A DNA stretch of 64,000 nucleotides, taken from contig DVIN01000080.1 in assembly GCA_018711275.1 (NCBI GenBank), forward strand, positions 23,168 to 87,167, read 5' to 3'. Shown here piece after piece: positions 41,164-56,608 of this stretch. The stretch is from Candidatus Pullilachnospira intestinigallinarum. GTDB lineage: Bacteria > Bacillota > Clostridia > Lachnospirales > Lachnospiraceae. The first letter of the stretch is position 1, and each line of letters starts with the position of its first letter. The notes under the pieces are model-generated. The model was given only the letters and a program-made list of their open reading frames with translations. It was not told the origin of the DNA and did no database searches. The translations under genes were made by a program, and so were the position numbers.

Positions 41164-41503
41164 CTTTGTATCCTGTGTGTCCCGCATGGTTAGTCACCCT
41201 TCTTCCATGTCTGTTTCACTAAAGCTCTGAGTAAAAAGATAAATACAACAGCGATTATTGCAAAATACATCTCTCAATAATATAGCGAGCAATATCCAAC
41301 GCCCTGTACATAAACTCTTTCCCCTTAAATTATTAATCATATTAATCAATTATAATATATGAGTTCCGGATCCGAAACTGCTTTTAACTATAGTCTATCT
41401 CAAAAAGATATCGTTTTCAATATGATTTTATGTATAACGCCTGGAGCCGCTGTCAGAAACACCAATCGATTCCCTCCCTGTGTCTCTGGCAGCGGTTTAA
41501 TCC

Positions 41504-41857: not shown

Positions 41858-41916
41858 GGTGATTCCCCCTTTTATCATACAATCAATAACCCGCCGCATC
41901 TGCTTTTCTTTTGATC

Positions 41917-41956
41917 CGAACATATATTCCGAATATTTGTTCCAAACATATGTTCT
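41917..41956. promoter_or_regulatory. three tandem LexA (Cheo-type) boxes in the yneA-like leader
   Basis: CGAACATATATTCC (41917-41930), CGAATATTTGTTCC (41930-41943), CAAACATATGTTCT (41943-41956); each one mismatch from GAAC-N4-GTTC, phased 13 nt apart. Confidence 0.6.
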
Positions 41957-41972
41957 TATTCCTTATGACGCT

Positions 41973-42001
41973 ATTATAATTCCCGAACACATGTTTGTCA
42001 A
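41973..42001 (-). promoter_or_regulatory. consensus sigma-A promoter overlapped by a fourth LexA box
   Basis: Minus strand TTGACA (42001-41996), 17 nt, TATAAT (41978-41973); box CGAACACATGTTTG at 41984-41997. Confidence 0.65.
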
Positions 42002-42741: not shown

Positions 42742-42780
42742 TTTGTCCCATCTCCTTTCTGTTGCACGGAACCTTTCCGT

Positions 42781-43587
42781 CTACTGCACCTGATAAAGCA
42801 GCCTCCGCTCTTCACCTCTGCTCTCATAGATCCGTTTTTCCCTGGGGGAAAACAGGAACCTGGGCTTTTCATACCGGGGAAATCCCTCCCGGATTCTCTC
42901 CTCCAGATGTTTCACCGCTTCCGGCGGATCATTGAGATCCAGTCCGGCCAGCACATCGGGACCGTAATCCCACCAGCAAAGCTCTTCCAGCTTTTCAATT
43001 ACCGGCTCCGGAAACCGTTTCTTTATGGGACGCGCGGGAACACCTCCCACCACCGTATAAGGTTCCACATTTCTGGTCACCACCGCTCCTGCTCCCACCA
43101 CAGCCCCGTCGCCGATGGAGACGCCTCGCAGGATTGTGGCGCGTCCGCCAATCCACACGTCATTTCCAATGACGATTCTGGTGCGGGCGGCAAATTCATG
43201 GGTTTTCTGATAACGAAGAATCTTTTCCAGCCAGTCCATATCCTCATACAGATGATGAAAGGACCGGTTCCATCCGCAGTCCATATTCTGAAACACCAGA
43301 TGGGTGCTGACGGATTCCACCGGATGCACCGCGCCCCCGGCGACCACCTCCGGACCGAACAGACCGAAACGGCCGATGGATTCTATAAACCGCATGCTGC
43401 AGTGCTGATTGAAAAACGAAAATGCCCCGATAACCCCTGCGTCCACCCGCACGCCCGAACAAAAACGCACCGGCGCCTCACAGACACATTCCCGGTGGGA
43501 AGCGTAACAGATCTCAGCGACTTCCCCTGTGATGGTAATTCCCTGTCCGCCTTCGGCGGGAAATCGAAAACCGGAATGTATTTTCAT
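42781..43587 (-). CDS. hexapeptide-repeat (LbH) acetyltransferase, XAT/Vat-like
   Basis: AGGAGG before ATG 43587; [48 protein letters not shown] tail. Confidence 0.8.
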
Positions 43588-43630
43588 GACCTGCCTCCTG
43601 TAAATTGATTGCCAAAACACCCGCTGCCGG

Positions 43631-44401
43631 TTACTGACAGGGAATCTGATACAGCAGTGTTTTTCCTTTTTCATCGATCTGCCATACAGAGCAGATTCCC
43701 TGCTGCTGACATACCAGAAATCCCGACTTTTCAAAAGGAACGGGAACCTCCGATGCGGCCGCCCTAGCAGCTTCCTCAAAGAAATCACCGGAGCCGGCAA
43801 GAGCGGCAAAATCCGTTCTGGCAAGCACTGCGCCGCCATAATCCCACCAGGAAAAGGATTTCTGATACCGATATCCGGTGATGTGCGCGGGATTTCCCTG
43901 AAGCAGCGCCCCTTCCGGCACCGATGTCTGGACAAATGCGCCGGGGGCAATCACCGCCCCGTCTCCTACTGTTACACCCTCCAGGATCACGGCTCCATCA
44001 CCGATCCAGACATCACTTCCGATCCGCACAGGCCTGGAGCCGGACAAGGGAACCGGATGTTCCACAGCAAACGCGTCGTCCCACCACCCCTGCCGGCTGC
44101 GGATCATGGCGCATACCGGAAATTCTCCGGTATTCCTGCCGGATACTGCTCCGATCCGGCAGGATTCTCCAATGACCGAAAACCTTCCGATGCTGCGGCA
44201 GCGGCGGATCCGGGTATCACTTCCCACCTGTGTGCCCATTCCCAGAAATTCCGTCTCCAGATGACAGCCTTCCCCCAGGGAAACCGGCGTCTCCAGAAAC
44301 ACTCTGGGACACCGGCGGGGATGGCCCAGCCAAAGGGTGTTCGCAGTCACCACTTTGCCCTTCCCGGTCAGGAGCGGGAAGGTTTCTCTGTCCACCCTCA
44401 T
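43631..44401 (-). CDS. hexapeptide-repeat (LbH) acetyltransferase, paralogue
   Basis: [36 protein letters not shown] tail; start overlaps upstream stop (ATGA). Confidence 0.75.
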
Positions 44402-45993
44402 GGGCGGGAAGACTCCTTTCCCTTCTCCTCCAACTGCCTGCGCAGTTCCTGTTCCATTTCAATATACTCTAGCAGCCGCCGTTCCGTGGCCGCCAGGATC
44501 CCCTCCAGCATCCGGATACGGATCTGATCGTCGCTCATCTCCGCGAAAGAAATCTCCGTGCCCGAGTAAGGCAGCTTTCTGGATTCCCTGATTTTTCTGC
44601 TCTGGCTCATAAGATGCGCCTCCTTACTGTAAAAATACATGGTGTCACAGCCCTCCTCGTCCCAGTATTCCTCCGACCGGCACCATGCTGCCGCCAGCCG
44701 CGTTTTCCGGATGGAAAGGGGCTGCATGGAGAGAAATTTTTCCCTGATCTCCTTCCCGGGCCGGTACATGCCATACTGCCCGTCCGTATTGAGAAACAGC
44801 ACCGCCCGGACATTGGCAGGCAGTTCCCAGGGATCCTGCCCGTTCCCGTCTCCGTCCCAGAAACAGATCACCTCCCCGGACAGTTCCTCCAGGTTCCGGC
44901 TGACGGAAAGATTCCCCGGAAGCTCCCGGTTCCACCGGGAAAGATTTTCAAAGGGCAGCGGATCCGTACCGGCCGTCCAGATGGAGGTAAATCCCAGCGC
45001 TGCGGCCGCCGCCATGGCCATATAATAAATGTGGATGAAATGGAAATTCCGCTCATAGGCGGCATTAGATTTCAGACAGCTGGAAAACTCCTGCCGGATC
45101 AGATTGATGCCGGTGGAGCTGATGGTACAGACCGTTTCCGGAAGCCGTTTAAAGGCCACAGGCAAAAGCTCCGCCGGAAAAATTTCTCTTAAAATCTCTG
45201 CCTCCGGAAACAGCCGGTGATAATACAGAATATCGTCCGGATGCGGCTTGATCAGCACCTTCCTGCCCTCCAGAAAATAGTCAAACAAGGTCTGATAGAT
45301 GAGGATCTGTTCCGGAAACGTCAGCTGTCCCAGATTGGCAAATTGCTGCGTTAGAAGCAGCACGCAATCCGGATCTCCCTCATATACCGGCACCCGGAAG
45401 AACTCCCGGATACTCTGCTTCCATGTATCCCTGAGCTGTCCAAAGGCCTCCATCACCGGGAAATCCACCGCCTTTTCGTCAGAAAATCCTTCCCTCTGCG
45501 ACCTGGCGTCACAGATTTTCTCCGTGATCACCGGATTGGTGTGATCGTACAGATGGTATTTTTCCACCGCCTTCTGCCGGTCAGGGGAACTTTTCCTGTG
45601 AATGTCCGACAGGATCCAGGGGCGGCTTAAGGCCCCGCTGCCGTCCTCAAACATGGCAAAGCAGATTCCGTCCCTGGCCCACTGCACCTGCAGCCAGGTA
45701 TGAATCCCCGCCGCGTAGATTTTGTCGTAATCCTCCGCCCGCCTTCCGGTGACGGAGCGGAATTCCTCCCGCACCTCTTTTACAATTTTATCCTCCTCTC
45801 CCCGGTAGCCGCCGTACCGGAACAGCAGCACCCGGTCAAAAAATCCCCGTTCTTTCGCTTCCCGGTACTGGGGCATCCGCTCCAGAATATAGTTTCCCAG
45901 CAGCAGATCCGCCTCCTCGTCGGCGTGAAAGGTCAGCCGGTGGACGATACATTCCAATATCTGATAAGATGACAATGCCTGATAAAGTATCAC
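44398..45993 (-). CDS. putative CMP-ulosonic-acid transferase (sialyltransferase/GT52-like motifs)
   Basis: GTG 45993 preceded by GGAGGAGGAG and overlapping upstream stop (GTGA); FEDGSG (45634-45651) and KPHP (45238-45249) resemble bacterial sialyltransferase D/E-D/E-G and HP motifs. Confidence 0.45.
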   Translation of the reverse strand: MILYQALSSYQILECIVHRLTFHADEEADLLLGNYILERMPQYREAKERGFFDRVLLFRYGGYRGEEDKIVKEVREEFRSVTGRRAEDYDKIYAAGIHTWLQVQWARDGICFAMFEDGSGALSRPWILSDIHRKSSPDRQKAVEKYHLYDHTNPVITEKICDARSQREGFSDEKAVDFPVMEAFGQLRDTWKQSIREFFRVPVYEGDPDCVLLLTQQFANLGQLTFPEQILIYQTLFDYFLEGRKVLIKPHPDDILYYHRLFPEAEILREIFPAELLPVAFKRLPETVCTISSTGINLIRQEFSSCLKSNAAYERNFHFIHIYYMAMAAAAALGFTSIWTAGTDPLPFENLSRWNRELPGNLSVSRNLEELSGEVICFWDGDGNGQDPWELPANVRAVLFLNTDGQYGMYRPGKEIREKFLSMQPLSIRKTRLAAAWCRSEEYWDEEGCDTMYFYSKEAHLMSQSRKIRESRKLPYSGTEISFAEMSDDQIRIRMLEGILAATERRLLEYIEMEQELRRQLEEKGKESSRP

Positions 45994-48671
45994 AGTTTCT
46001 CCTCCTCCCACAGCTTCGCTTTTTCCATCACCTGACGGACGGATTCCATTACCGCCCGGTCCTGGGTGGCAAACAGATCTCTCCCGAAAATATAGCCTCC
46101 GAAATATTTTCTCAGCCAGGACAGATGTCCGGAAAAATGAAGAAACGGCATATACGCGTCATGGCCGGAGATATCCAGCATATAGGGGAAATCCTGAAAC
46201 CATCCGGTATAATCCCTGACAAAATCCAGACATCCCCGGTGAATCTCCCGGTTATGCTCATAATTTTCCACCTCAGGAATATCATAGAGAATCCGCCCTT
46301 CCCGGTCGAACCCCAGGAAGGTGGGTGTGCAGGACTGGGTCAGAATTTCAAAAAAGAAAGAATTCAGATGACGATTCCCCGCCTGATGCAGATCATGCAG
46401 CTCCTTGTTGTCCAGACTGGAAAACAGATACGTTTCCACCTGCCGTTTCTGCATCATGGCGGCCATATAGGTGTCATTGACATTTCTTGTGGCCGCCAGC
46501 AGACAGCTGATCCGACAGTTCAGATGGTATACTTTCTCCACCAGATAGCGAACCTGCAGCACGTTATTTCCTGACCAGCCCACATCCACCACGGCAGCTC
46601 GCCTGCTGCCCGCCAGCATTCTGGAAAGATAATCCCGTATTGCCTCCTGGTCCGCCTGATAGCAGCCGCACAGCTCCTCCCAGTGATCCACCAGAAGAGA
46701 ATAGACCACCTTTTCATTTGCGGGCGTCAGATATTCCCGGTCGTGAAGCCGGTATTGGGGAAAATATTTTTTCAGCTCTCCGATTCCCACCCGGTCAAAC
46801 AGAGTTCCAATCCGGGATTTATAGAGGGCGTTGGCCTTGTGATGTACCAGCTGCAGCAGATAGGGATGACGGTTCTTGTCCACGGTGGTCTTTACCACCG
46901 GCACCCGGCTCCACAGAACATATTCTGTGGGAAAATCCGGATACATCTGTGTAAAGACTTTTCGGTACAAATCTCCTTCACGGGCCAGAAACAGAATCTT
47001 ATCCAGTCCATGCGCTCTGGCATACCGGTAAATCCACTGGCAGAAACCCATCACATAAAAGCCCGTATACACATACCCTACCTCATAGTACGGACTGAAA
47101 CGCTCCATCCCGGAATGGAGCCTGGCATTGATCACACCCCGGTAAGCGCTTCCCGCCAGATGCGACATTCCCAGGGCCCGATAGGGATTCCCGGCCTCAT
47201 TCACGTTCTGATACAGCCGGGCGGCCAGACCCTTTTTCCGTGCACTGTCATAATCCGAATGAGGATTGTCGCCCACATGGATAAGCTCCAGCCCGTCGTA
47301 CCGATCAGTCAGAATATCGTACAGGCCGCCGTTTCGCTTGGAGCAGTTGTAATCACAGGAGACAAGGACCTGATCCCACTGGTCATAACCACAGGAGGCC
47401 AGGAGCCTGCGCATCCATTCTTCGGGAAGATACATATCCGACACTGCCGCCAGCGTCTTATTCTGCCCCAGAAGCAGCCGGTAAACTGTCTGCATATAGG
47501 GATTGGGCCGGCAAAGGGACAACTCCGTCTCAAATTCCACCCGGGCGCCTTCCCCTGGATCGATTCCCGTTTCCCTGGCCACATATTCATAAATCTTAAG
47601 CAGCGTAACCTCTTTATTTCCCCGCTTCAGATAATTGTCATTTCTGGCCTGCTGCTCCGCGTTTTTCCTGATTTCGCAAAAATCCATGATATCCAGTCTC
47701 TCACCCACCAGCACAAACAGGTCGGAGGGCGCAGAGAAGGGACGCAGAACCAGCGTATCGAAAATATCAAAGGAAATCACCGGATAAGGCATCAGACTTT
47801 TGGCAAAATTCATGGGGGATATCCGGTTGGAAGCTTCTGACTCCGCACCCTTTTCATACAGCCGGCCTCCGGCGCCCGGCAGGGGAAGATGCGTTTTTAC
47901 GGGAGCAGTTTCCCCCAGATCATGGTATTTCCGGTTGTCGCAGGTGTATTTGACCCGGTAACGGTAAATGCCGGGAGCAGGCTGATCATCGGTAAAACAG
48001 GTTTTTGATGTCTGTACCAGAAAGCGAAATTCCCCGTCTTCTCCCGCCCGGTAGACATTATAGTGAAGCGCTTTCGCCGCCCCTTCCCAGAACAGGGATG
48101 CGCCTCCGGCGGGATCCGCCTCGGCCTGCAGACGGTGGGAATGTCTCTCTTTTCTGCTTTTGCCGGTTTTGTTCTGTTCCCGTTGTCCTCCACTGTCCGC
48201 ATAAGCCAGCCGGCGGGCCCAATAGAGATTTTCATCTGCCACGGTGGAGACGGAAAGGATTTCGGAAAAGTCGCTGTAAAAGGAGCCGTCCATGGAAACC
48301 TTAAATTTATAAAAGGTAATGGTCTCCGGCGGCAGGGAGGCCGTTTTATACCGGTTGCTCTCTGTCTTTGCCAGAAAACGGAAATGAACGCCGTCTTCCG
48401 AATGATAAAGATTGTAACAGACCGCGCCGAAAATCTTTTCCATCCGGATTGTGGCGCGTCCGTCTTTGATCCCCAGCAGCTGTATCCGGTGCAGGCGATT
48501 CTTCTGACTTTTGCGGTATTTCCAGGCGAGAAGAGCCAGCACCAGCCAGTGCCTGAGCCGGTGACTCTGATGCTGCGCGAGATGGCCGGTTACATATCGC
48601 TCATAGGCTTTACGGACCCGCTCATTTTTTCTGACGATTTTTTCATACAGACGTTCCTTTAATCCGCTCAT
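45990..48671 (-). CDS. 893-aa protein: two Fn3-like modules + HAD phosphatase-like domain + conserved unknown module (COG5610-like)
   Basis: GAGGTG RBS before ATG 48671; internal repeat YNLYHSEDGVHFRFLAKT / YNVYRAGEDGEFRFLVQT; HAD motifs ISFDIFDTL .. VSD .. SKRNG .. HVGDN; C-module ILFLAREG, VDVGWSG. Confidence 0.6.
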   Translation of the reverse strand: MSGLKERLYEKIVRKNERVRKAYERYVTGHLAQHQSHRLRHWLVLALLAWKYRKSQKNRLHRIQLLGIKDGRATIRMEKIFGAVCYNLYHSEDGVHFRFLAKTESNRYKTASLPPETITFYKFKVSMDGSFYSDFSEILSVSTVADENLYWARRLAYADSGGQREQNKTGKSRKERHSHRLQAEADPAGGASLFWEGAAKALHYNVYRAGEDGEFRFLVQTSKTCFTDDQPAPGIYRYRVKYTCDNRKYHDLGETAPVKTHLPLPGAGGRLYEKGAESEASNRISPMNFAKSLMPYPVISFDIFDTLVLRPFSAPSDLFVLVGERLDIMDFCEIRKNAEQQARNDNYLKRGNKEVTLLKIYEYVARETGIDPGEGARVEFETELSLCRPNPYMQTVYRLLLGQNKTLAAVSDMYLPEEWMRRLLASCGYDQWDQVLVSCDYNCSKRNGGLYDILTDRYDGLELIHVGDNPHSDYDSARKKGLAARLYQNVNEAGNPYRALGMSHLAGSAYRGVINARLHSGMERFSPYYEVGYVYTGFYVMGFCQWIYRYARAHGLDKILFLAREGDLYRKVFTQMYPDFPTEYVLWSRVPVVKTTVDKNRHPYLLQLVHHKANALYKSRIGTLFDRVGIGELKKYFPQYRLHDREYLTPANEKVVYSLLVDHWEELCGCYQADQEAIRDYLSRMLAGSRRAAVVDVGWSGNNVLQVRYLVEKVYHLNCRISCLLAATRNVNDTYMAAMMQKRQVETYLFSSLDNKELHDLHQAGNRHLNSFFFEILTQSCTPTFLGFDREGRILYDIPEVENYEHNREIHRGCLDFVRDYTGWFQDFPYMLDISGHDAYMPFLHFSGHLSWLRKYFGGYIFGRDLFATQDRAVMESVRQVMEKAKLWEEEKL

Positions 48672-48682
48672 TTTTTCACCTC

Positions 48683-49201
48683 TTACGCGCCCCACAGCCT
48701 GCGGGCGCAATCTTCCAGAATTCCCTTTGCCGAAAGCACCAGTTCCGCAAATTCCCGTACGGCGCCCTCTCCGCCCCGCGCTTTCAATACCAGGGAACAC
48801 CGGTTCCGGACGCCTGCGGCCGCATCGGAGGGACAGGCACTGACAGCTGCCAGGGACATGGCTGCCAGATCGTTGAAATCATCGCCAAGATAGGCGGTCT
48901 CCTGCCCGGAGAGGTTCTGTTCCCTCAGAAACTGTTCCAGAAAGGTCCGTTTATCTTTTACCCCCTGGAATACCTGGCTGATTCCCAGCTCCCTGGCGCG
49001 CAGAGCGACACAGGAACTTTCTCTTCCGGTGAGGATCACCGGGAGTACGCCGCCTTCCCGAAGAAGCAGAATTCCCGCTCCGTCGCGGATGCTGAATTTT
49101 TTCATTTCCGTTCCCCGGCTGTCCAGATACACGCCTCCGTCGGTCATGGTGCCGTCCACGTCTAAAACCAGACAGCGGATGGCGGAAAGTACCTCTCTCA
49201 T
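48683..49201 (-). CDS. KdsC-family HAD-IIIA phosphatase (ulosonate-phosphate phosphatase)
   Basis: LVLDVDGTMTDG, ILTGRES, YLGDDFNDL; 172 aa. Confidence 0.8.
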   Translation of the reverse strand: MREVLSAIRCLVLDVDGTMTDGGVYLDSRGTEMKKFSIRDGAGILLLREGGVLPVILTGRESSCVALRARELGISQVFQGVKDKRTFLEQFLREQNLSGQETAYLGDDFNDLAAMSLAAVSACPSDAAAGVRNRCSLVLKARGGEGAVREFAELVLSAKGILEDCARRLWGA

Positions 49202-50781
49202 CGTATCTCCTCCTCATAACGGGAGGGCGTCAGAAAACTCAGTTTCATCTGCTCCCGGATTTCACCCAGCCATCCGGCAATCTGATGATTGTCTCCGGAG
49301 GACGCTCCGTAAAATTCGCCGAAATATCCGGGCAGATAATTTTCCCCGCCCTCCTCATAACCGTCAAATCCTGCCAGAGCGGCCTCCTTCACTCCCAAAA
49401 GAACCAGAAGTCTAAGAAGCAGGATTCCGCAGTTGGCGCTGTAGGATTTCTCCCCGTAGGCCAGCCGGTCATAATTGATCACCAGATCTCCGGCAGCGTA
49501 CCTGGAGGAAACATTGGAGGTGAGAATCACGTTGCTGCGCTGCTTTCGGGAGGTTTTATATTCCTCATACCGACGGGCATTGCTGAAAAAGGCATAGCCG
49601 CCCTCCTGCTCATCAAAATAGAAATTGGCGGATACCGGAATGGCTCCTTCCCTGCGGATATAGCTGTGTACCTTTTTCCAGGAAGATTCCAGACTCTTTC
49701 CCGGCGCCAGAACCACCACCCGGCGGCCGCCGAACTCTTCCGCCAGCTGGGAAAGCGCTCCGTCATCTTCCACCTTCCGGTTCTCATATTTCCGATACAG
49801 CTTCTCCGCCGTATCTTCATCAAAAACAGCCTTCTTCTTTTCCGGGATCATCTTCAGAATCTGGTTCATATCTCTGCTGGTAAGCGTTCCCTTTTTCTGA
49901 AGATATTCCGCGTAATTCCGGTGGAGGTTGTGTTTCGCGGAAAGAAAATATTCTGTGGAATAGCCCCAGGATTCCTTCTGACGAATGGGAAGAATATGCT
50001 CCTGGATGGCATCCAGCACCTGATTAATTTCATACTTTCTCCCGTAATTTTTGTTCATGTAATCCATCAGAAGTTCCATGCACAGATTGCCCGGAACCCG
50101 CCCCATGCCGTTTAGAGAAGCATCCAGCACGCATTTTCGCCCCGCCTCGCGCATCTTTAGAAAATCCTGGGCCAGAGAGAACGACAACGCCAGGTTTTCA
50201 TGAAGATGAAGCCCCAGAACCGTTTTTTTGTCCAGATTGTTCTCACAGAGGGAATAAATCCTTGTCAGTTCCTTTCTGGTCATGGAACCGAAAGTATCCA
50301 CAATGGAAAATCCATACGGAGACAGCTGGCGCACTTTTTTCAGGAGTTTCAAAAGAGCGGCGTCCTTATATCCCATAATATTGATGGGATTCACAAACAG
50401 ACGGTACCCCTTTTCCATCACTTTTCTGCCGAATTCCAGCCCTTCATCGATATCGTAGTCGTGGAAGGTCACCCGGATGGCGTCCAACGTGCCGTCGTTG
50501 TCCTCCAGTTGGCTGATATCATACTGGTTATGCAGAGCCATGGCTACGAAACGGGACTTTTTCCGGTTATCCGGAAGAATCCGGGATAATTCCTTTACAT
50601 TGCCGAATAACGTCCGGTCCGGATCATAGACGCCGTTTCTTAAAAATCCCACTTCAATCAGATCACAGCCTGCGTCTACCAGCCGTGTCAGCAGATTTTG
50701 AATGGTCCGCCGGCCAAACCTCCAGTCGTTGATGTAACCGCCGTCCCGGAGCGTACAGTCCAGAAGTCTGATTTTCTCCAT
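49198..50781 (-). CDS. fusion: HMGL-like (DRE-TIM) aldolase domain + CstII/Maf (MptE-like) domain
   Basis: AGGAGG before ATG 50781; DCTLRDGGY, GLHLHENLALS (HxH), NGMGRVPGN for the N-domain; VVVLAPGKSL .. SANFYFDEQ .. LLGVKEAALAGFDGY for the C-domain. Confidence 0.65.
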   Translation of the reverse strand: MEKIRLLDCTLRDGGYINDWRFGRRTIQNLLTRLVDAGCDLIEVGFLRNGVYDPDRTLFGNVKELSRILPDNRKKSRFVAMALHNQYDISQLEDNDGTLDAIRVTFHDYDIDEGLEFGRKVMEKGYRLFVNPINIMGYKDAALLKLLKKVRQLSPYGFSIVDTFGSMTRKELTRIYSLCENNLDKKTVLGLHLHENLALSFSLAQDFLKMREAGRKCVLDASLNGMGRVPGNLCMELLMDYMNKNYGRKYEINQVLDAIQEHILPIRQKESWGYSTEYFLSAKHNLHRNYAEYLQKKGTLTSRDMNQILKMIPEKKKAVFDEDTAEKLYRKYENRKVEDDGALSQLAEEFGGRRVVVLAPGKSLESSWKKVHSYIRREGAIPVSANFYFDEQEGGYAFFSNARRYEEYKTSRKQRSNVILTSNVSSRYAAGDLVINYDRLAYGEKSYSANCGILLLRLLVLLGVKEAALAGFDGYEEGGENYLPGYFGEFYGASSGDNHQIAGWLGEIREQMKLSFLTPSRYEEEIR

Positions 50782-50909
50782 CTGTCAACTCCTCCTATCA
50801 AGTCAGTTTTTCTGCCCCATGGGCGTGCCTTTCCGGATCTCCGACGCCCGAAGCGTCTTTTCGTCCGTTGCTTATCCGATGCCCTTAGTGTGTCCCGACT
50901 TTTCTCCCT

Positions 50910-52907
50910 TCATTCCACAAACATACTGGTTTCCCAGGAAAAATACTGCTCCAGTTTTTTCCGGTATCCGGCATCCGACAGTACTGCCCGGATGGGCGCG
51001 TAAGCATCCCTCCCGCTGATTTCCTGTCCCTTAAGACCGCCGAAATGGCGCTTCCAGTCGGAGGCGAAGTCCCAGATTCCCTGCTGGATTCTCCGGATTT
51101 TTTCTGACTGCGGCTCCGGATTGCCGAAACGAAACTGCACGTTGCCTTCCGCATCCCTCGCGAATCCCAGAAAAGTGGGAGACGGCGAGGCCGCCAGAAG
51201 CTCCATCACGAGATTATCTCCCCTGACAGGATCATGGAATTCCCACAGCCGGCGGTTAAAAACGGGAGAGAAAAGGTACGTTTCCACCTGCCCTGTGAAC
51301 AGCTCCGGATAAAGAGCGGCAAAATCTCCGTTTTTCCGTGGCGCCGACGCCGCGAGAAACGTATGGATCGTTGTATTCGGGCAGACTTTCCCCGCCACAT
51401 GGGCCAGCGCCCAGGGACCGGTTCCCAGCCACCCGATGTCCACTGCGGCAGCCCGGCTGCATCCGGCAAGCATACCGGCCAGATATTCCTCTGCCGCTTC
51501 CATTTCCTGACGGTATATCTCCAACACCAGCGGGAAATGGCTCTGCAGCCAGACTTCATACGCCTCCGCCGTCTGAGCGGTAAGCGGCGTTTTTTCATCG
51601 AGCCCCGTATCGCGGCTGGCGCCCGCCAGCAGACCGGACAGATCCATGGAGGCAAAGCAGTCTGCCGCCGTATATCCCCGATTGATTTTATCCCGCAGAA
51701 ACCGCCGGAAAAATTCCTGTCGGCGTACATCCGCCGAAAGCTTCAGGGCCACCCGCCGGGACCAGTATACATAGCGGGTGTCACTGTCCGGATACAGCAG
51801 TTGATAGACTTTGCGGACAATTTCCCCGTCTCTGGCAAGAAACAGCAGACGGTCGATTCTTTTCTCCTGAACCTTTCTGTGAAGAAACCGGCAAAATCCC
51901 ACCGCCCAGAGACCGCCGTACAGATAGCCGAATTCATACAGCGGGGAATAACGCCGGCCGCGTCCGTGCATCCTCTGGCTGGCCAGCCCCCGGTACATGC
52001 TTCCCACCACCGGCGACATCCGGCGGATCCGGAAAGGATAACCCATAAGACGGGCAGAAGGAATCAGAAGAGACGCTACCCCTCTCTTTCGGGCTTTTTC
52101 CCCATCCGACACCGCATCGTCTCCCACATGAATCCAGCGGCAGCCGGAACCGAACCAGAGACGGATCACATCAAAAAGTGTTCCCTGACCTTTGGAAGCG
52201 TTCCGGTCACAGGATACAAAACATCTGTCAAATACTCCCAGGCCCGCCTCCAAAAGAAGGCGGCGGATCCGTTCCTCTCCCAGATACATATCACTGGCGA
52301 TCACCACCTGTTTTCCGGCCCTTCGAAGAGCCGCAAGCACCGGAAGAAACCGGGGATTGGCATAACAGAACTGCCGCTCCGTCTCCCATTCCGCCAGCAT
52401 TCCCTCCCCCCTGTCAATTCCGGTCTGCGCGGACAGAACCTCCCAGATTTCCTCCAGCGTCACCTCCCCGCATCCGCCTGCCTGCCGGTTTCGTCTGCGC
52501 GCCTCCTCCTCCGCCCGGATACGCAGCGCGCGAAAATCCGGGCAGGAAAGCTTCAGGCCCACAAAATAGAAAAGATCTGCCGGTTCTTCCACCGGGCGCA
52601 GAAGAAGGGTATCAAACACATCAAAGGAAATCACGTCAAATTCCATCAGCCGTCGCATCATGGACCGGGTTGAAGGAACCTGAAACCGCCCGGACTCCCG
52701 CAGCAAAAGCCGGGCCGGATTATTTTCTCTGCTCCAGCCCGCTGTTTTTGAAAATCCCGGCAGCCGATTCGCCAGAAGACAGAAACAGCCTTTTACAAGC
52801 CCCGGCCATCCGGGATTTTTTCGCCGAAAATCCTGCCACCAGACGGCGGCTTCCCACTCCTGCCGGGTCAGTACCCCAAACAAAGCCTTCTTTAACCACT
52901 GAAACAT
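50910..52907 (-). CDS. 665-aa HAD phosphatase-like domain + conserved unknown module (COG5610-like), paralogue 2
   Basis: ISFDVFDTL .. ASD .. SKGQG .. HVGDD; C-module LLFLARDG, VDIGWLG, VETYLFS, SPTFLGF shared with the 893-aa protein. Confidence 0.65.
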   Translation of the reverse strand: MFQWLKKALFGVLTRQEWEAAVWWQDFRRKNPGWPGLVKGCFCLLANRLPGFSKTAGWSRENNPARLLLRESGRFQVPSTRSMMRRLMEFDVISFDVFDTLLLRPVEEPADLFYFVGLKLSCPDFRALRIRAEEEARRRNRQAGGCGEVTLEEIWEVLSAQTGIDRGEGMLAEWETERQFCYANPRFLPVLAALRRAGKQVVIASDMYLGEERIRRLLLEAGLGVFDRCFVSCDRNASKGQGTLFDVIRLWFGSGCRWIHVGDDAVSDGEKARKRGVASLLIPSARLMGYPFRIRRMSPVVGSMYRGLASQRMHGRGRRYSPLYEFGYLYGGLWAVGFCRFLHRKVQEKRIDRLLFLARDGEIVRKVYQLLYPDSDTRYVYWSRRVALKLSADVRRQEFFRRFLRDKINRGYTAADCFASMDLSGLLAGASRDTGLDEKTPLTAQTAEAYEVWLQSHFPLVLEIYRQEMEAAEEYLAGMLAGCSRAAAVDIGWLGTGPWALAHVAGKVCPNTTIHTFLAASAPRKNGDFAALYPELFTGQVETYLFSPVFNRRLWEFHDPVRGDNLVMELLAASPSPTFLGFARDAEGNVQFRFGNPEPQSEKIRRIQQGIWDFASDWKRHFGGLKGQEISGRDAYAPIRAVLSDAGYRKKLEQYFSWETSMFVE

Positions 52908-52941
52908 TCCATGGATTCCTCACTTTCCAGCCGGATGGTCT

Positions 52942-53724
52942 TTAGAGTACCGGCGTCTGTTTTTGGCTCCTTCCGTATGCCAGATAAGCGTCGCAGACCT
53001 GACGGGGATCGCCGTCCATCAAAAGTTTTCCCTTCTCCAGCCACAGTACGCGGCTGCAGGTGGACAGGACGGCGGATACCGAATGGGATACCAGCAGCAC
53101 CGCGGTGCCGCCCCGGATAATCTGACGGATCCGCTCCTCGCTTTTCTGCCGGAAAAAGGCGTCGCCCACACTGAGCACCTCGTCCAGAATCAGCACTCCC
53201 GGCAGGGTGCGGGCGGTGGCAATGGCAAATCCCAGACGGGACACCATGCCGGAAGAAAAATTTTTGATTTTCTGATCCATAAATCCCTCCAGCTGGGCAA
53301 AGCTTACGATTTCCCGATATTTGGCGGCGATTTCCTTCTTCCCATAACCCAGAAGCGCCGCGTTCAGATACACATTTTCCCTGGCCGTCAGCTCCCGGTC
53401 AAAGCCGCACCCCAGGGTCAGCAGATGCATCCGGCCCGGGTCCGCCACCACTCGTCCGCCGGTGGGCGGCATGGCGCCGGATATGATTTTCAGCAGGGTG
53501 CTCTTCCCGGAACCGTTGGTTCCCACGATCCCCACCACCTGTCCGGGAAATACGTCAAAGGAAACCCCGGACAGGGCCGCAAACCGCCGCACCGGATGGT
53601 TCCCGGTAAACCGCCGGATCAGATATTCCTTCAGACTGTCCGCCCTTTCCACGGGCATTTGAAATTCCATGGTGACATTTCTTGCAGAAATCACCGGGCG
53701 GTCCTTTTCCACGCCATTTGCCAT
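52942..53724 (-). CDS. ABC transporter ATP-binding protein, Wzt/TagH type (no C-terminal carbohydrate-binding domain)
   Basis: GGAGGTGG before ATG 53724; GTNGSGKST, FSSGMVSRLGFA, LILDEVLSVGD. Confidence 0.9.
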   Translation of the reverse strand: MANGVEKDRPVISARNVTMEFQMPVERADSLKEYLIRRFTGNHPVRRFAALSGVSFDVFPGQVVGIVGTNGSGKSTLLKIISGAMPPTGGRVVADPGRMHLLTLGCGFDRELTARENVYLNAALLGYGKKEIAAKYREIVSFAQLEGFMDQKIKNFSSGMVSRLGFAIATARTLPGVLILDEVLSVGDAFFRQKSEERIRQIIRGGTAVLLVSHSVSAVLSTCSRVLWLEKGKLLMDGDPRQVCDAYLAYGRSQKQTPVL

Positions 53725-53737
53725 ATGCCTCCACCTC

Positions 53738-54490
53738 CTACAGCCGCTGGATGATTCTGCTCTGATTTCTGAAAAAACAGAGACTTCCCGCCGCAAAAAT
53801 CACGGCCGCCCACAACGCCATCCGCACCCACAGTCCCGCCGATGGCACCTGGCCGTACATCATGCAGTCCCTGGCCGCCGCGATATAACAGTAAACGGGA
53901 TTTTCCCCCACAATCGCCTGCATGGCCGGGGGCAGCAGCGTTACCGGATAAAAAAGCGCCGATAGATACATCCACAGGGTCAGCACCACCCCATACAAGT
54001 GGCGGACGTCGCCGAAATAGGCATAGAGGATGGAAAGGAAAAATCCCACGCCCATGGAAAACAGTCCCAGAAGCGCCACAATGGGAAGAAACAGCACCAT
54101 CCGCCAGGTGGGCCGGATGGCAAAAACCGCCAGGATTACCCCGTAGGCGGCCAGAGAATAGATAAGATTCACCAGCGCGGCCAATACCCGGGATACGGGA
54201 AACACCGCCCGTGGAAAGCTGGTCTGTAAAAGCAACGTCCGGTTGTCTGCCAGTGCGCTCATAGCCGCGTTGGTGGAGCCCGTAAAGAAATTCCACAGAA
54301 TCAGGCCGGTCACGTAATACACCGGATAATTTTCAATGGATTTCCGGAACATGGTGGAAAACACCAGCGACAGCACCGCCATGGACAGCAGCGGATTCAG
54401 CACGCTCCAGAGAATTCCCAGCCGGGACCGGCTGTATTTTCGTTTCAATTCCCGAAGAATCAGCTGCCCGGTCACAAAAGAATATTTCAT
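53738..54490 (-). CDS. ABC-2-type polysaccharide/teichoic-acid export permease (Wzm/TagG type)
   Basis: RELKRKYSRSRLGILWSVLNPLL N-terminus, 6 TM; directly upstream of the ATPase. Confidence 0.85.
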   Translation of the reverse strand: MKYSFVTGQLILRELKRKYSRSRLGILWSVLNPLLSMAVLSLVFSTMFRKSIENYPVYYVTGLILWNFFTGSTNAAMSALADNRTLLLQTSFPRAVFPVSRVLAALVNLIYSLAAYGVILAVFAIRPTWRMVLFLPIVALLGLFSMGVGFFLSILYAYFGDVRHLYGVVLTLWMYLSALFYPVTLLPPAMQAIVGENPVYCYIAAARDCMMYGQVPSAGLWVRMALWAAVIFAAGSLCFFRNQSRIIQRL

Positions 54491-55791
54491 GACGATTCCC
54501 TCTTTTTGCCTGTAATGATCCGGAAAACGGATTTTTTGAGATATAAGGCATACTTATACAGCCGGATTTCGGCCAGTTGGCGCCGGACGTGTTTTCCCCG
54601 CCGGACCACACTGCCCTCCATCCAGGCGCTCTCCCCCGGCGGACGTCCCGCAAGCTGCGCCGCCGCCAGAACCTTTGTCAAAAGATGGCCGCCGGAAAGC
54701 AGAAACGGATCACCGGAGGGGACAGGAGCCAGTTCCCTGCCGGGCTCCTCCAGCACGTCATCGGTGAATGTTAAGCTGCCGAAGGCATGGGCCTGTCGGA
54801 GAGTGGGTGTTCCCATAAAAGGCGCAAGGAGGCGTTCCAGCTTTCCCGCCGGGCAAAGTTCCCAGGCCCGGATGGACAGCGGAAGCCTCTCCGCCTTCTG
54901 GCGGGCCAGGGAGACCACCGCATCCTCCACCACATGGAGCGCCGGAAAATTTTCCCCGAGAGCCGGACGGTACCGGGGAACAAAACATCCCTGCTTCGTC
55001 CTCTGATACCCTTCCGTCATTCCCCGGGGCGCGCCGAATACACACTCAAACAGGCTGTTGGAGAAGTATGCTTTCCTCCTTATCTTTCCCCGAACCGGAA
55101 AATAATACGCATGGTATAAATTTTCCTGTACGCCCTTTGGCAGCTGATACAGTCCGAAATAAAAACCGTTGATTTCCCTGTGAAATCCTTCCTTCTCCAG
55201 CAGGACCTTCAACGTCTGCTGCAGGCTGCCGGTCCATCCGCTGTCCGCCACCGCCCAGCGGATGTCGTCAAAAAGGCCCTCCTGCCGCAGATAACCGCAG
55301 ACGCCGGGAAGCGCCTTTTGGGCGTGGGATTCCACCATCTGCCAGAATGGCGGACAGTGAAAAAAAAGCGGCTTCAGCCGCCGGATTTCCTGCCGGGTGA
55401 GAATTTTATCCAGAGGGACAGATACCCCGGCTGCCTGCGCCGCCCCAAGCGCTTCCTGGCGGTCAAGACCTGCCCGGGCCAGAATTTTCCCCAGGGTCAC
55501 ATCGATGCCGTCCAGAAAAATCTGATCCAGGCTTTCCTTTCCCAGCAGGGCGAAAGAAGGCAGCCGCAGCGCGTACCGGGAACATTCCAGATAGCGGCAT
55601 TCGATGCGGGGGTGGCGGTTTTCGGCCAGGATACATCCCGCCCGGTACATCATCCACCCGTCCCTGGCCAGAAAATAAATTCGCCGGATCCCCAGGCGCT
55701 CTGCCTCAGACAAGATCCATTTGACGTACTCCACCATCACAGGAGCCAGTATTTTACCGGCGGTATCCCTGACTGTGTCCATCGGTTCCAT
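54487..55791 (-). CDS. 434-aa protein consisting only of the conserved unknown module (paralogue 3, no HAD domain)
   Basis: RIYFLARDG and VADSGWTG motifs collinear with the C-modules of the 893- and 665-aa proteins; stop overlaps permease start (ATGA). Confidence 0.55.
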   Translation of the reverse strand: MEPMDTVRDTAGKILAPVMVEYVKWILSEAERLGIRRIYFLARDGWMMYRAGCILAENRHPRIECRYLECSRYALRLPSFALLGKESLDQIFLDGIDVTLGKILARAGLDRQEALGAAQAAGVSVPLDKILTRQEIRRLKPLFFHCPPFWQMVESHAQKALPGVCGYLRQEGLFDDIRWAVADSGWTGSLQQTLKVLLEKEGFHREINGFYFGLYQLPKGVQENLYHAYYFPVRGKIRRKAYFSNSLFECVFGAPRGMTEGYQRTKQGCFVPRYRPALGENFPALHVVEDAVVSLARQKAERLPLSIRAWELCPAGKLERLLAPFMGTPTLRQAHAFGSLTFTDDVLEEPGRELAPVPSGDPFLLSGGHLLTKVLAAAQLAGRPPGESAWMEGSVVRRGKHVRRQLAEIRLYKYALYLKKSVFRIITGKKRESS

Positions 55792-56608
55792 GATTTTTCC
55801 GCTCCATTTCCCTTTTTATCCGGTAGAGCAGGCCGGAGGGAACCAGCGCCGCCGCCAGCGGACGGAGAATCTGCAGCCGCGTCCTCCACCCCGTAAGTCC
55901 CAGCATGGCAAATCCTTTTTTCCGCAGTCTCATCTCGTCCATCCGGTAACGCAGCTTCCGCTTTTTGAAGGAGGCCCGCTCCTGCCGGTAATAAAACAGT
56001 TCTTTCTGAAGATTATACCCATAACAGTCCGATCCATGCAGCCGCATGAAAAATTCGTAATCCTCACAGCGCAGAGTACGGCGTGATTCACAGTAGCCGC
56101 CGAACTGTTCAAAAACACTTTTCCGGAACATCACCGAGGGATGAATATACGGAGAATGAGGGAGAAAATCTTCTTTCTTTGGCCTTTTTGGCATTTTCCG
56201 ATGACCGCGGATCCTGCCGCCGTCCAGAATTCCCGCACAGCATCCCACAAAACCGTAGGCCGGATGCGTCTCAAGAAACCGCAGCTGTTTTTCCAGCCGC
56301 TCCGGCAGGGAAATATCGTCGTCATCCATCCGGGCGATATACGCTCCCCGGGCCAGTCGGACGCAGGTATTGAGCCCTGCGGCCAATCCCCGGTTTTGTT
56401 CCTTCCGGATCAGCCGGATCCGCGGATCCTGCCGGGCAATTTTCTGAAGCTCGCGGTATGTCCTCTGCCCGGAGCCGTCATCCAGAATCAGAAACTCAAA
56501 ATCCCGGAAGGTCTGGCTCAGAATGGAATCCACCGCCAGACGCAGATTTTTAAAACTGGCCGGTTGATACACACTCATAATCACACTGATTTTCACGGAT
56601 TTTCTCAA
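55754..56608 (-). CDS. family 2 glycosyltransferase
   Basis: GGGAGGTG + TTG 56608; ISVIMSVYQP..SILSQTFRDFEFLILDDGS, ARMDDDD. Confidence 0.9.
   Translation of the reverse strand: MRKSVKISVIMSVYQPASFKNLRLAVDSILSQTFRDFEFLILDDGSGQRTYRELQKIARQDPRIRLIRKEQNRGLAAGLNTCVRLARGAYIARMDDDDISLPERLEKQLRFLETHPAYGFVGCCAGILDGGRIRGHRKMPKRPKKEDFLPHSPYIHPSVMFRKSVFEQFGGYCESRRTLRCEDYEFFMRLHGSDCYGYNLQKELFYYRQERASFKKRKLRYRMDEMRLRKKGFAMLGLTGWRTRLQILRPLAAALVPSGLLYRIKREMERKNHGTDGHSQGYRR

Follow-up and report, generated by a model that had tools for sequence, protein, structure and literature searches.

The glycan phosphoribosyltransferase (gPRT, also known as CriT) family has been characterized biochemically and structurally since 2022–2023, with PDB 7SHG and Bcs3 (8A0C) as solved members (PMC10299916). 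According to the accounts given in PMC11231755 and PMC11294581, the prototype bipartite ribofuranosyltransferases (Ribf-GTs) are K. pneumoniae O4 ORF5 and O7 ORF7, and T. composti 7SHG (Kelly et al., 2022, Nat Chem Biol 18:530). Further characterized members are the K. pneumoniae O4/O7 enzymes (PMC11231755), Salmonella STM0726 (PMC11294581), Cj1432 (PMC12096443), and KrkA (PMC12887879). Every characterized gPRT is fused to a phosphoribose phosphatase (PRP). In Bcs3, the CriT core resembles type I phosphoribosyltransferases (PRTases) and has a similar mode of PRPP-Mg2+ binding, in which a pair of acidic residues takes the place of the DD motif; the D680A and E818A substitutions lower activity, and the key residues of the phosphatase domain, CrpP, are the nucleophile D386 and K548 (PMC10299916). 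An undephosphorylated ribofuranose 5-phosphate (Ribf-5-P) halts further extension by Salmonella STM0726 (PMC11294581). In the literature that we searched, the biochemistry of the family comes from Gram-negative pathogens only, and Gram-positives are represented solely by the crystal structure of 7SHG.

Here, we analyzed three genes, A, B, and C, in a 64,000-nucleotide stretch of DNA (the window). On the strength of sequence profiles and structural models, we consider it highly probable that all three encode PRPP-dependent glycan ribofuranosyltransferases of the family that includes the K. pneumoniae O4/O7 Ribf-GTs, 7SHG, and Bcs3 CriT/CrpP.

Results

Three genes share a collinear module

All three open reading frames were found where the original prediction had placed them, on the minus strand, which it had left unstated:

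45990..48671, minus strand: protein A gene, 893 aa (ORF and translation)
50910..52907, minus strand: protein B gene, 665 aa (ORF and translation)
54487..55791, minus strand: protein C gene, 434 aa (ORF and translation)

The start of A was taken as the ATG at 48671. An alternative GTG at 48800 is possible, but is disfavored: starting there, A would run 118 nt into the upstream gene, and orthologs measure ~894–939 aa from stop to stop.

The three proteins have in common a collinear module of ~350 aa. The two motifs quoted for it were both present (ILFLAREG, LLFLARDG, and IYFLARDG; VDVGWSG, VDIGWLG, and ADSGWTG, in A, B, and C, respectively), and VETYLFS, [ST]PTFLGF, and SG.DAY.P, as well as the HAD motifs FD[IV]FDTL, SDMYL, SK..G, and HVGD[ND]..SD, were indeed confined to A and B. 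By BLASTP, A and B aligned strongly (38% identity over 585 aa, E = 8e-113) across the HAD domain and the module, whereas C matched either of them marginally (E ~0.01, two short collinear matches). An HMM of the A/B family detected C (E = 7e-9) and further members of the C family, with E-values as low as 5e-13. Aligning the A/B- and C-family alignments with hhalign gave probabilities of 97.4–98.9% (E 1e-11 to 2e-16) over 298–324 columns, and the local alignment paired residues 327–648 of B with residues 12–331 of C. The profile and hhalign results indicate that the similarity between A/B and C extends well past the short motifs. C is thereby judged homologous to A and B at the profile level only, and the proposal of three collinear paralogs is borne out, by BLASTP for A and B and by profile alignment for A/B and C.

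Neither Pfam nor NCBIfam holds a model for the shared module, which explains why it seemed unknown; public copies of the proteins are unnamed or called 'hypothetical protein'.

The shared module matches solved gPRTs

Two family alignments were used, A1 for the A/B family, in which A itself forms a row, and A2 for the C family. Profile A1 matched Bcs3 at E = 2.2e-28 (profile positions 57–497) and 7SHG at E = 2.6e-25 (profile positions 93–583), with both domains spanned; profile A2 matched Bcs3 at E = 1e-18 and 7SHG at 6e-11. Identity of A, B, and C to the solved enzymes was low (16–25%). By BLASTP, C alone matched the CriT segment of Bcs3 (25% identity, 195 aa, E = 8e-12); the gPRT domains of A and B alone were marginal against PDB segments, and their assignment rests on profiles, fold, and the PRP domain. 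The fold test for the bipartite type was run on B, to which A is linked by its 38% identity. For the AF2 model of B (pLDDT 90.3), the best Foldseek matches were Bcs3 8a0c (E = 4e-21, TMq 0.58) and 7SHG (E = 2e-19), and the best eight were all Bcs3 or 7SHG (E 4e-21 to 9e-19). For the model of C (pLDDT 92.3), Bcs3 (TMq 0.67) and 7SHG (TMq 0.59) were the sole significant matches (E = 1e-10). No nucleotide PRTase was among the best 50 Foldseek matches listed for B or C, none reached E ≤ 0.001 for C, and none was returned by PDB sequence searches with the A1 and A2 profiles.

Equivalents of Bcs3 S678/R679/D680, S707/R708, E818, E874, and S884 were located in A, B, and C and are (near-)invariant in A1 and A2; the Arg-acidic pair of loop 1 and the acidic residue of loop 3 are invariant in both alignments:

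A: loop 1, A563-R564-E565; Ser-Arg, S588-R589; loop-3 acidic residue, D696 (VDVGWSG); base Glu, E775; loop-6 Ser/Thr, T784
B: loop 1, A358-R359-D360; Ser-Arg, S383-R384; loop-3 acidic residue, D490 (VDIGWLG); base Glu, E569; loop-6 Ser/Thr, T578
C: loop 1, A42-R43-D44; Ser-Arg, S71-R72, followed by R76; loop-3 acidic residue, D183 (ADSGWTG); base Glu, E249; loop-6 Ser/Thr, T259, which adjoins M258, the residue aligned at the Bcs3 S884 position

The second 5-phosphate Arg of Bcs3, R712, corresponds to R76 in C, V593 in A, L388 in B (K389 is adjacent), and Y358 in 7SHG. Its replacement in A and B is a point against the family reading, but since it is replaced in the solved 7SHG too, this Arg is not family-defining.

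Taken together, sequence and models identify the shared module as a predicted gPRT domain. The original prediction of an uncharacterized module with no known activity was therefore wrong: by profile and fold, the module matches a characterized enzyme family, represented by Bcs3 and 7SHG, an outcome that the prediction itself had named as a refutation. Its description of the three proteins as core catalysts of the glycan pathway we judge correct, by way of the predicted gPRT/PRP assignment.

Proteins A and B resemble ordinary bipartite enzymes

The predicted domains of A and B are as follows:

47802..48671, minus strand: N-terminal extension of A, aa 1–290, two tandem repeats of ~85 aa each
48228–48497, minus strand: repeat 1 of A, aa 59–148
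47874–48143, minus strand: repeat 2 of A, aa 177–266
47157..47795, minus strand: PRP (phosphoribose 5-phosphatase, HAD) domain of A, from HAD motifs and alignment to Bcs3 CrpP
45993..47114, minus strand: gPRT domain of A, from residue mapping to the Bcs3 CriT active site
52020..52652, minus strand: PRP domain of B, from HAD motifs and alignment to Bcs3 CrpP
50913..51965, minus strand: gPRT domain of B, from residue mapping to the Bcs3 CriT active site

The N-terminal HAD domains of A and B fall into subfamily IA of the HAD superfamily (REG-2/HDHD3-like), and PF00702 is precomputed on many homologs. Against the NCBIfam HAD-IA model TIGR01549 (cut-off 23.3 bits), B scored 28.8 bits and A 21.0 bits, slightly under the cut-off. 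The motifs are FD302IFDTL (I), S411-D412 (II), K445 (III), and G-D468...D473 (IV) in A; in B, they are the nucleophile D96 (FD96VFDTL), S205-D206, K239, and D263/D268. These residues of A and B occupy invariant columns of A1. The motifs match those of CrpP (D386/K548), where likewise the first Asp alone of DXD is kept, and we assign both domains as putative PRPs. Because the shared motifs correspond to the gPRT catalytic loops and the HAD domain to PRP, A and B are predicted to be ordinary bipartite PRPP-dependent ribofuranosyltransferases. A ('A type') would consist of the N-terminal extension, PRP, and gPRT, and B ('B type') of a short helical N-terminus, PRP, and gPRT.

The two repeats of A are 31% identical to each other (E = 4e-11). 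The extension gave a weak match to GH85_C, under the Pfam cut-off, and no PDB match by sequence search; the repeats may be beta-sandwich or glycan-binding modules. Orthologs of A (58–75% identity) occur in seven loci, with three remoter A-like copies at 35–40%. They lie directly upstream of a sialyltransferase-like gene, and a KdsC-like phosphatase gene precedes them in the seven closest loci. In most related loci, a B-type ortholog follows the gene for the ABC ATPase.

Protein C is a predicted gPRT without a phosphatase

C had no HAD match in Pfam or NCBIfam, and a PRP HMM detected the domain in none of 262 sampled C-type proteins. An intact HAD domain in A and B that is absent from C, as originally proposed, is thus supported by Pfam/NCBIfam, by motifs, and by the PRP HMM. 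Sequence and model point to C being a stand-alone gPRT, a member by its gPRT domain and not a bipartite Ribf-GT. In an alignment of 66 diverse sequences from the C family, R43, D44, S71, R72, R76, D183, G185, W186, G188, and E249 are (near-)invariant. The protein has a conserved C-terminal tail (aa 351–434, 54490–54741) that ends in a long amphipathic helix.

C-family relatives were found in 520 species-representative genomes, which belong to Lachnospiraceae, Oscillospiraceae, and allied gut Clostridia; the family is large and Clostridia-specific. At E ≤ 1e-30, its profile collected 1,474 clusters at 50% identity, a figure that over-counts the C type as it includes dual-domain relatives. The C-type module is fused to a GT2 in 7 of the 262 proteins. 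Fusion to a permease also occurs, rarely. No description of a phosphatase-less gPRT was found in the papers on gPRT enzymes that we read, and the one novelty in the observation is this C type without a phosphatase.

C belongs to a conserved glycosyltransferase–exporter cassette

The surrounding operon comprises a cassette and a variable part:

56550..57776, minus strand: GT4 glycosyltransferase, first cassette gene, start at 57776 inferred (Pfam Glycos_transf_1, E = 5e-39)
55754..56608, minus strand: GT2 (GT-A fold) glycosyltransferase (Pfam PF00535, E = 7e-34)
52942..54490, minus strand: ABC exporter of Wzm/Wzt (TagG/TagH) type
53738–54490, minus strand: ABC-2 permease (Pfam ABC2_membrane, E = 2.5e-18)
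52942–53724, minus strand: exporter ATPase (Pfam ABC_tran, E = 2.5e-20)
41998..50781, minus strand: variable operon part, interleaved with A
49198–50781, minus strand: HMGL-like aldolase, 527 aa
48683–49201, minus strand: KdsC-like phosphatase
44398–46011, minus strand: GT38/GT52-like transferase
43631–44401 and ~42781–43650, minus strand: two Vat-like hexapeptide acetyltransferases
41998–42741, minus strand: KdsB-like cytidylyltransferase (NCBIfam score above cut-off)

The GT2 gene and the start of C share 38 nt, and this GT2 is the probable partner of C. Upstream of C-type genes, a GT2 is directly adjacent in 66 of 70 loci and a GT4 is present in 64 of 70; downstream, the permease is found in 64 and the ATPase in 63 of 67 loci. 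Hence, the neighborhood analysis revealed a conserved cassette, GT4-GT2-C-Wzm-Wzt, common to hundreds of gut Clostridia. The 'triplication' of the original prediction, should it be read as local duplication, is not one: A, B, and C represent three orthologous lineages of old standing, and in related loci each occupies a conserved place of its own.

The variable module recurs in about half of related loci. For its GT38/GT52-like transferase, no similarity to a PDB chain could be detected, and the HMGL-type aldolase seems to stand in for KdsA in making the ulosonate. The operon contains no initiating phosphoglycosyltransferase. Judging by its Ribf-GTs, Kdo-like sugar module, and acetyltransferases, it probably builds an O-acetylated, ABC-exported wall polymer of Ribf and a Kdo-like ulosonic acid that is assembled in the cytoplasm, analogous to the E. 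coli K13/K20/K23 capsules. We infer the acceptor sugars, linkages, order of steps, and identity of the ulosonic acid in this polymer.

Discussion

By homology, the gPRT module would bind PRPP-Mg2+ in its alpha/beta core. Loop 1 ([A/S]-R-[D/E], the FLAR[ED]G motif) and loop 3 (an acidic residue then G-W-x-G, the (V/A)D.GW.G motif) would position the ribose and 5-phosphate, the Ser-Arg (WSR/CSR) and the [ST] of PTFLGF/GMT would hold the phosphates, and the invariant Glu (E775/E569/E249) would deprotonate the acceptor hydroxyl. In A and B, the PRP (nucleophile D302/D96) would next strip the 5-phosphate, so that the net product would be Ribf addition; C would perform the first step only, together with the adjacent GT2. 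It is the conserved PRPP-binding residues that suggest, for A, B, and C, that PRPP would be the donor and beta-Ribf(-5-P) the product, with PRP as the dephosphorylating domain.

We tentatively propose that C represents a widespread, undescribed class of phosphatase-less gPRTs, coupled to GT2 and exporter, that installs a persistent Ribf-5-P. If so, this group might act as a cap, either for chain termination or for export, or might supply the negative charge of a teichoic-acid-like wall polymer; as to the phosphate on the product of C, we lean, at roughly even odds, towards its being kept as a functional Ribf-5-P, as a cap or anionic group. It is likewise conceivable, though short of probable, that the PRP of B or A removes this phosphate in trans, leaving only unphosphorylated Ribf in the polymer; C would then amount to a third ordinary Ribf-adding activity that borrows its phosphatase from a neighbor. 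Split Bcs3 constructs (CroT/CrpP and CriT) are active when combined (PMC10299916), wild-type STM0726 dephosphorylates added Ribf-5-P product (PMC11294581), and at least one typical PRP-gPRT gene lies within 10 kb in 39 of 52 C-type loci, mostly just after the exporter genes. On the other hand, among the 52 loci, which have ≥6 kb of downstream sequence, 10 lack a PRP domain anywhere within ±10 kb, and the absence of PRP from all 262 C-type proteins contrasts with its fusion in every characterized gPRT.

A third possibility, that C is a non-catalytic scaffold (a pseudo-enzyme) organizing GT2, GT4, and the exporter, would suit its tight coupling to GT2 and rare permease fusions, but we consider it improbable given that C keeps all catalytic/PRPP-binding residues known from Bcs3, (near-)invariant across the 66 sequences. 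Pseudo-enzymes normally lose catalytic residues. A non-catalytic partner in a Ribf-GT complex does have a precedent in STM0725 (PMC11294581), although the roles would be reversed here. Lastly, an uncharacterized COG5610-like domain of unknown phosphotransfer, polymerization, or modification activity, unrelated to known enzymes, might have been read from the missing Pfam/NCBIfam models and unnamed public copies, but is most unlikely, being already refuted by significant profile and fold matches to two solved enzymes, Bcs3 (itself assayed) and 7SHG, and by the conserved active-site residues.

For A and B, our results are mostly a correction of annotation, from a 'hypothetical' module to a PRPP-dependent ribofuranosyltransferase. 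The organism, a Lachnospiraceae-like gut Clostridium, is accordingly predicted to make a wall or capsular polymer that contains ribofuranose and leaves the cell through an ABC exporter. The conserved cassette extends the gPRT family to hundreds of gut commensal species, and offers a handle on largely unknown surface glycans that interact with the host immune system and phages. If active, the C type would stand as the first gPRT in nature whose reaction is not coupled to dephosphorylation, and as a candidate enzyme for placing ribose-5-phosphate on glycans, of interest for glycoengineering. Earlier screens used PRP as the marker of Ribf enzymes (PMC11127046), and would thus have missed it.

Comparison with known systems

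Type I PRTases (HGPRT, APRT, OPRT, UPRT) form N-glycosidic bonds to bases, and the acidic pair of gPRTs is instead on two loops. The best match in sequence and fold for B and C is Bcs3, the H. influenzae type b capsule polymerase (8A0C/8A0M, PMC10299916), whose pathway likewise uses an ABC transporter. A and B share its PRP-gPRT domain order; the likeness extends to the loop-1 S/A-R-D/E, the loop-3 acidic residue (Glu in Bcs3, Asp in A/B/C), the Ser-Arg, the proposed base Glu, and HAD motifs I–IV. Bcs3 differs in coming from a Gram-negative and in being 1,215 aa long, with an additional TagF-like ribitol-phosphate transferase and an SH3b domain; A instead has two N-terminal repeat modules, and C is without an equivalent of CrpP.

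The prototypes O4 ORF5, O7 ORF7, and 7SHG are, according to the papers that cite them, stand-alone two-domain PRP-gPRT proteins of ~600–650 aa, like B, that act in ABC-transporter-dependent glycan assembly, as here. 7SHG, from a Firmicute, shares the motifs FLSREG and VDVGWKG with the A/B/C module, but identity is ~17% and the domain orientation differs (TMq ~0.4, whole B).

The GT2 and C pair is paralleled by the polymerizing Salmonella T1-antigen enzyme STM0726 and its GT-A partner STM0725, which are coupled functionally and physically (PMC11294581) in a system that also depends on an ABC transporter. However, STM0726 keeps its PRP while C has none, and STM0725 is apparently non-catalytic whereas the GT2 in the window keeps its DXD motifs.

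E. coli K13 KrkA combines a GT140 Kdo transferase with PRP-gPRT, and K13, K20, and K23 are Ribf-Kdo capsules (PMC12887879). The K13 gene set resembles this operon in its Ribf-GT, CMP-Kdo-type sugar, Vat-like O-acetyltransferase (VatD), and ABC exporter (PMC12887879). KrkA and Cj1432 (PMC12887879, PMC12096443) share with it a multi-enzyme logic and a C-terminal helical, membrane-associating tail; in contrast to KrkA, the activities here reside on separate polypeptides, and the putative ulosonic-acid transferase is GT38/GT52-like.

Three proteins of the glycan operon carry the module of ribofuranosyltransferases

The glycan operon encodes three proteins, here called A, B and C, which the original prediction described as sharing an uncharacterised collinear module and proposed to be core catalysts of the glycan. 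The three open reading frames (ORFs) and every motif quoted in that prediction were present in the translations:

45990-48671, minus strand: protein A, 893 aa (ORF and translation)
50910-52907, minus strand: protein B, 665 aa (ORF and translation)
54487-55791, minus strand: protein C, 434 aa (ORF and translation)

By BLASTP, A and B align over 585 aa covering the HAD region and the C-terminal module (E = 8e-113, 38% identity) and, judged by sequence, are clear paralogues. When C was aligned pairwise with A or B by BLASTP, two short collinear matches appeared near FLARDG and D.GW.G, at a marginal E of ~0.01; we did not rely on these and judged the kinship of C by profile comparison. To this end, homologues of B (538, mostly ~650-700 aa) and of C (345, mostly ~420-480 aa) were gathered and the families compared as profiles. 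The A/B HMM matched C (E = 7e-9) and further members of the C family, with E values as low as 5e-13, and hhalign of the two families gave a probability of 97.4-98.9% (E 1e-11 to 2e-16, 298-324 columns), with B 327-648 paired with C 12-331 in the local alignment. The shared module is therefore real, and the homology extends far beyond the short motifs.

A Pfam-A scan of the three proteins found no family for the module, NCBIfam matches were weak and confined to the HAD-IA part of both A and B, leaving the module unmatched, and a cluster look-up returned no names or accessions. We also searched the sequences of solved structures (PDB) with profiles of the A/B family (A1) and the C family (A2). 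A1 matched Bcs3, the H. influenzae type b capsule polymerase (8A0C, 9H50; E = 2.2e-28), from the HAD domain up to the acidic residue of loop 3, and 7SHG, the 'Ribofuranosyl transferase' of Thermobacillus composti (E = 2.6e-25), across the HAD domain and much of the C-terminal module. A2 matched Bcs3 (E = 1e-18) and 7SHG (E = 6e-11), both in the glycan phosphoribosyltransferase region (CriT or gPRT), and nothing else; C alone matched the Bcs3 CriT segment at E = 8e-12 (25% identity over 195 aa). AlphaFold2 models of B and C had pLDDT values of 90.3 and 92.3, respectively. When the B model was searched against the PDB with Foldseek, the best eight matches were Bcs3 or 7SHG chains (E 4e-21 to 9e-19), followed by ordinary HAD phosphatases that matched the N-terminal domain only. 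The only significant matches of the C model were Bcs3 (TMq 0.67) and 7SHG (TMq 0.59), the next having E = 0.1. An hhhhD.G..G pattern had raised the possibility of an ASKHA-type fold or of a second HAD domain in degenerate form; these matches and fold searches led us to drop it. Collectively, the module matches a characterised enzyme family, so the claim that it is uncharacterised does not hold; the proposal that A, B and C are core catalysts in the glycan pathway stands.

Residues of the PRPP site are conserved in A, B and C

In Bcs3, CriT transfers ribofuranose-5-phosphate (Ribf-5-P) from PRPP onto the growing chain, and CrpP, a HAD-like phosphatase, takes off the 5-phosphate (PMC10299916). 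The Whitfield, Kimber and Lowary groups, whose names for the modules are gPRT (C-terminal) and PRP (N-terminal phosphoribose phosphatase), demonstrated activity for K. pneumoniae O4 ORF5 and O7 ORF7 (PMC11231755), Salmonella T1 STM0726 (PMC11294581) and E. coli K13 KrkA (PMC12887879), and the Raushel group did so for C. jejuni Cj1432 (PMC12096443). In all cases the bipartite enzymes transfer beta-linked ribofuranose (Ribf), and PRP is the bioinformatic marker used for the family (PMC11127046). The CriT residues reported for Bcs3 are S678/R679/D680 (loop 1), S707/R708/R712, E818 with the 821-825 backbone (loop 3), E874 (the proposed base) and S884; alanine at D680 or E818 lowers activity (PMC10299916). 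We aligned the HMMER-printed Bcs3 and 7SHG segments to the modules of A, B and C.

Table. Equivalents of Bcs3 CriT residues (Bcs3; A; B; C; 7SHG)
SRD (678-680); A563-R564-E565; A358-R359-D360; A42-R43-D44; S-R-E
S707-R708; S588-R589; S383-R384; S71-R72; S353-R354
E818; D696; D490; D183; D463
E874; E775; E569; E249; E529
S884; T784; T578; T259 (next to aligned M258); S538

The tabulated positions are invariant or nearly so in both the A1 and A2 alignments. Among the three proteins, an equivalent of Bcs3 R712 occurs only in C (R76); since 7SHG also lacks it, we did not treat it as family-defining. It follows from this mapping that the two motifs originally noted in all three proteins are loops 1 and 3 of the PRPP site, and that [ST]PTFLGF is loop 6. 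HAD motif I of A and B, FD(I/V)FDTL, is of the CrpP type, with the first Asp of DXD only, and the further HAD motifs SDMYL, SK..G and HVGD....D are present in both.

A and B thus carry every testable feature of the bipartite Ribf-GT family, and are new members of it from a Gram-positive gut commensal lineage without a studied member in the literature searched. Homology shows them to be two-step Ribf-adding enzymes, in which gPRT would move Ribf-5-P from PRPP and PRP would then cleave the 5-phosphate.

Outside the shared domains, residues 1-290 of A (47802-48671, minus strand) contain two tandem ~85-aa repeats (31% identity, E = 4e-11). This extension is kept in A-type orthologues; its one family match, to GH85_C (a beta-sandwich), is below the Pfam threshold, and a search of PDB sequences found nothing meaningful. 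The extension may serve as a glycan-binding module, a counterpart to SH3b in Bcs3. The tail of C (residues 351-434; 54490-54741, minus strand) is specific to C, has conserved F.DDVL and ESAW.EGS motifs but no Pfam-A or NCBIfam match, and ends in an amphipathic helix of ~30 aa; pLDDT is lower over residues 340-400. By analogy with the C-terminal helices of KrkA and Cj1432, for which the same has been proposed, it may mediate membrane or partner association.

C represents a phosphatase-less variant of the family

C has the features of a gPRT domain but not the defining bipartite architecture, and is a new architectural variant. A PRP domain was found in none of 262 sampled C-type proteins, of which 254 were stand-alone, seven had an N-terminal GT2 (P0189, P0217, P0257, P0263, P0309, P0332 and P0335) and one was fused to an ABC-2 permease (P0347). 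One locus (L050, 9851-12145) shows the permease fusion too. These fusions suggest that C is physically coupled to both a glycosyltransferase and the exporter. That C is an N-terminally truncated pseudogene was rejected on account of the large stand-alone family (~420-520 aa) with conserved synteny. The use of PRP as the search marker probably explains why the C type had been overlooked.

Scanning genomes with the C-family alignment turned up relatives in 520 species-representative genomes, almost all of Lachnospiraceae, Oscillospiraceae and allies as judged from 80 retrieved loci; the closest is in Candidatus Pullilachnospira stercoravium (74% identity). In an exhaustive profile search covering 1.84 billion representative proteins, 7,980 matches reached E <= 1e-3, of which 1,474 also passed E <= 1e-30. 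Neighbourhoods were counted in the 80 loci, with denominators that vary by gene. Immediately upstream of the C-type gene there is a GT2 in 66/70 loci; a GT4 is also upstream in 64/70, with the permease (64/67) and the ATPase (63/67) downstream. Cultured species that carry this cassette include Mediterraneibacter hominis NSJ-55, Brotonthovivens ammoniilytica, Bianquea renquensis and Solibaculum intestinale. Downstream sequence of 6 kb or more was available for 52 loci; of these, 30 had one typical PRP-gPRT gene, nine had two and 13 had none; these 13 comprised two with a divergent PRP-gPRT, one with a contig-truncated PRP ORF and ten with no PRP domain.

In many related loci, the stop-to-stop ORF of the ABC ATPase is 450-780 aa long, with the ATPase domain starting at residue 200-530 (for example L007 11971-13662, L014 12021-13919 and L032 11995-14229); the ATPase in the window is short (~260 aa). 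The long ORFs hint either at an extended N-terminus or at a gene upstream, in frame, that has gone unrecognised.

The operon combines old paralogues with putative genes for a Kdo-like sugar

The operon (13 genes, ~57776 down to 41998, minus strand) reads GT4, GT2, C, ABC-2 permease, ABC ATPase, B, HMGL-like aldolase, KdsC-like phosphatase, A, GT38/GT52-like transferase, two Vat-like hexapeptide acetyltransferases and KdsB-like CMP-Kdo synthetase. Its continuity is judged from overlaps and short gaps (-59 to +39 nt), a scan for promoters and terminators being uninformative for its boundaries; GT2 overlaps the start of C by 38 nt, and the sole larger gap (128 nt) lies between B and the aldolase gene.

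49198-50781, minus strand: HMGL-like class II (pyruvate) aldolase, 527 aa (N-terminal PF00682, E = 1e-14)
48683-49201, minus strand: KdsC/Kdn-9-P-phosphatase-like HAD protein
44398-46011, minus strand: GT38/GT52-like transferase
41998-42741, minus strand: KdsB-like CMP-Kdo synthetase (NF003952, 227 bits against a cut-off of 193)

The aldolase matched the 'putative aldolase' 3DXI in the PDB (E = 1.6e-27), its C-terminal ~190 aa having no Pfam-A or NCBIfam match, and the sialyltransferase-like 537-aa protein found nothing meaningful among PDB sequences. Together, the four genes appear to form a pathway leading to a CMP-activated 3-deoxy-ulosonic acid, with a pyruvate aldolase replacing KdsA/NeuB. 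In the 52 related loci, the aldolase occurs in 26, the transferase in 24, the cytidylyltransferase in 18 and the phosphatase in eight.

A-type and B-type enzymes form separate orthologous lineages, each with a fixed locus position: B type after the exporter genes, and A type directly upstream of the sialyltransferase-like gene. In the seven closest loci, whose A orthologues are 58-75% identical, the KdsC-like gene comes before the A-type gene. The three copies are hence old paralogues, and not the product of a local triplication.

Several features flank the operon:

39872-41041, minus strand, just downstream: tyrosine recombinase (phage-integrase family)
37542-38303, minus strand, nearby: HGSNAT/acyltransferase-3-like membrane acetyltransferase (PF07786)
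34387-36372, plus strand: 661-aa protein with many cell-wall-binding (choline-binding-type) repeats (PF01473, PF19127) and a C-terminal M23 peptidase
58224-59594, minus strand, upstream: nucleoside phosphorylase (PNP_UDP_1) fused to a GNAT acetyltransferase

The 661-aa protein is a wall-anchored hydrolase and may bind a wall glycopolymer. GC content falls to 0.44 at 40-42 kb (40001-42000); near 38-40 kb, at the switch of gene orientation from plus to minus, the sign of the GC skew reverses.

Proposed roles in glycan synthesis

C would perform the transfer step only, jointly with the GT2 of the overlapping gene, a pairing that recalls the STM0725 (GT-A)/STM0726 heterocomplex of Salmonella. We lean slightly towards a product of C that keeps its 5-phosphate, a reading to which we give about an even chance. 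It is consistent with the complete absence of PRP from the C family and with the ten of 52 loci that have no PRP nearby. Moreover, undephosphorylated Ribf-5-P halts extension in Salmonella (PMC11294581), and a phosphatase-less gPRT would thus be a natural chain cap; alternatively, the retained phosphate might supply negative charge to a Gram-positive wall polymer. Removal of the phosphate in trans, which we consider somewhat less probable, is supported by the finding that split Bcs3 functions in trans (PMC10299916) and by the presence of a neighbouring PRP-bearing enzyme in 75% of loci.

Overall, the three proteins are accounted for mainly by a known family; a conserved Clostridial cassette and a phosphatase-less gPRT are what this analysis adds. 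Gene content suggests that the operon makes an O-acetylated polymer of Ribf and a Kdo-like sugar. Such a polymer would be analogous to E. coli K13/K20/K23, which combine a Ribf-Kdo repeat, a Vat-like acetyltransferase and a PRP-gPRT on KrkA (PMC12887879).
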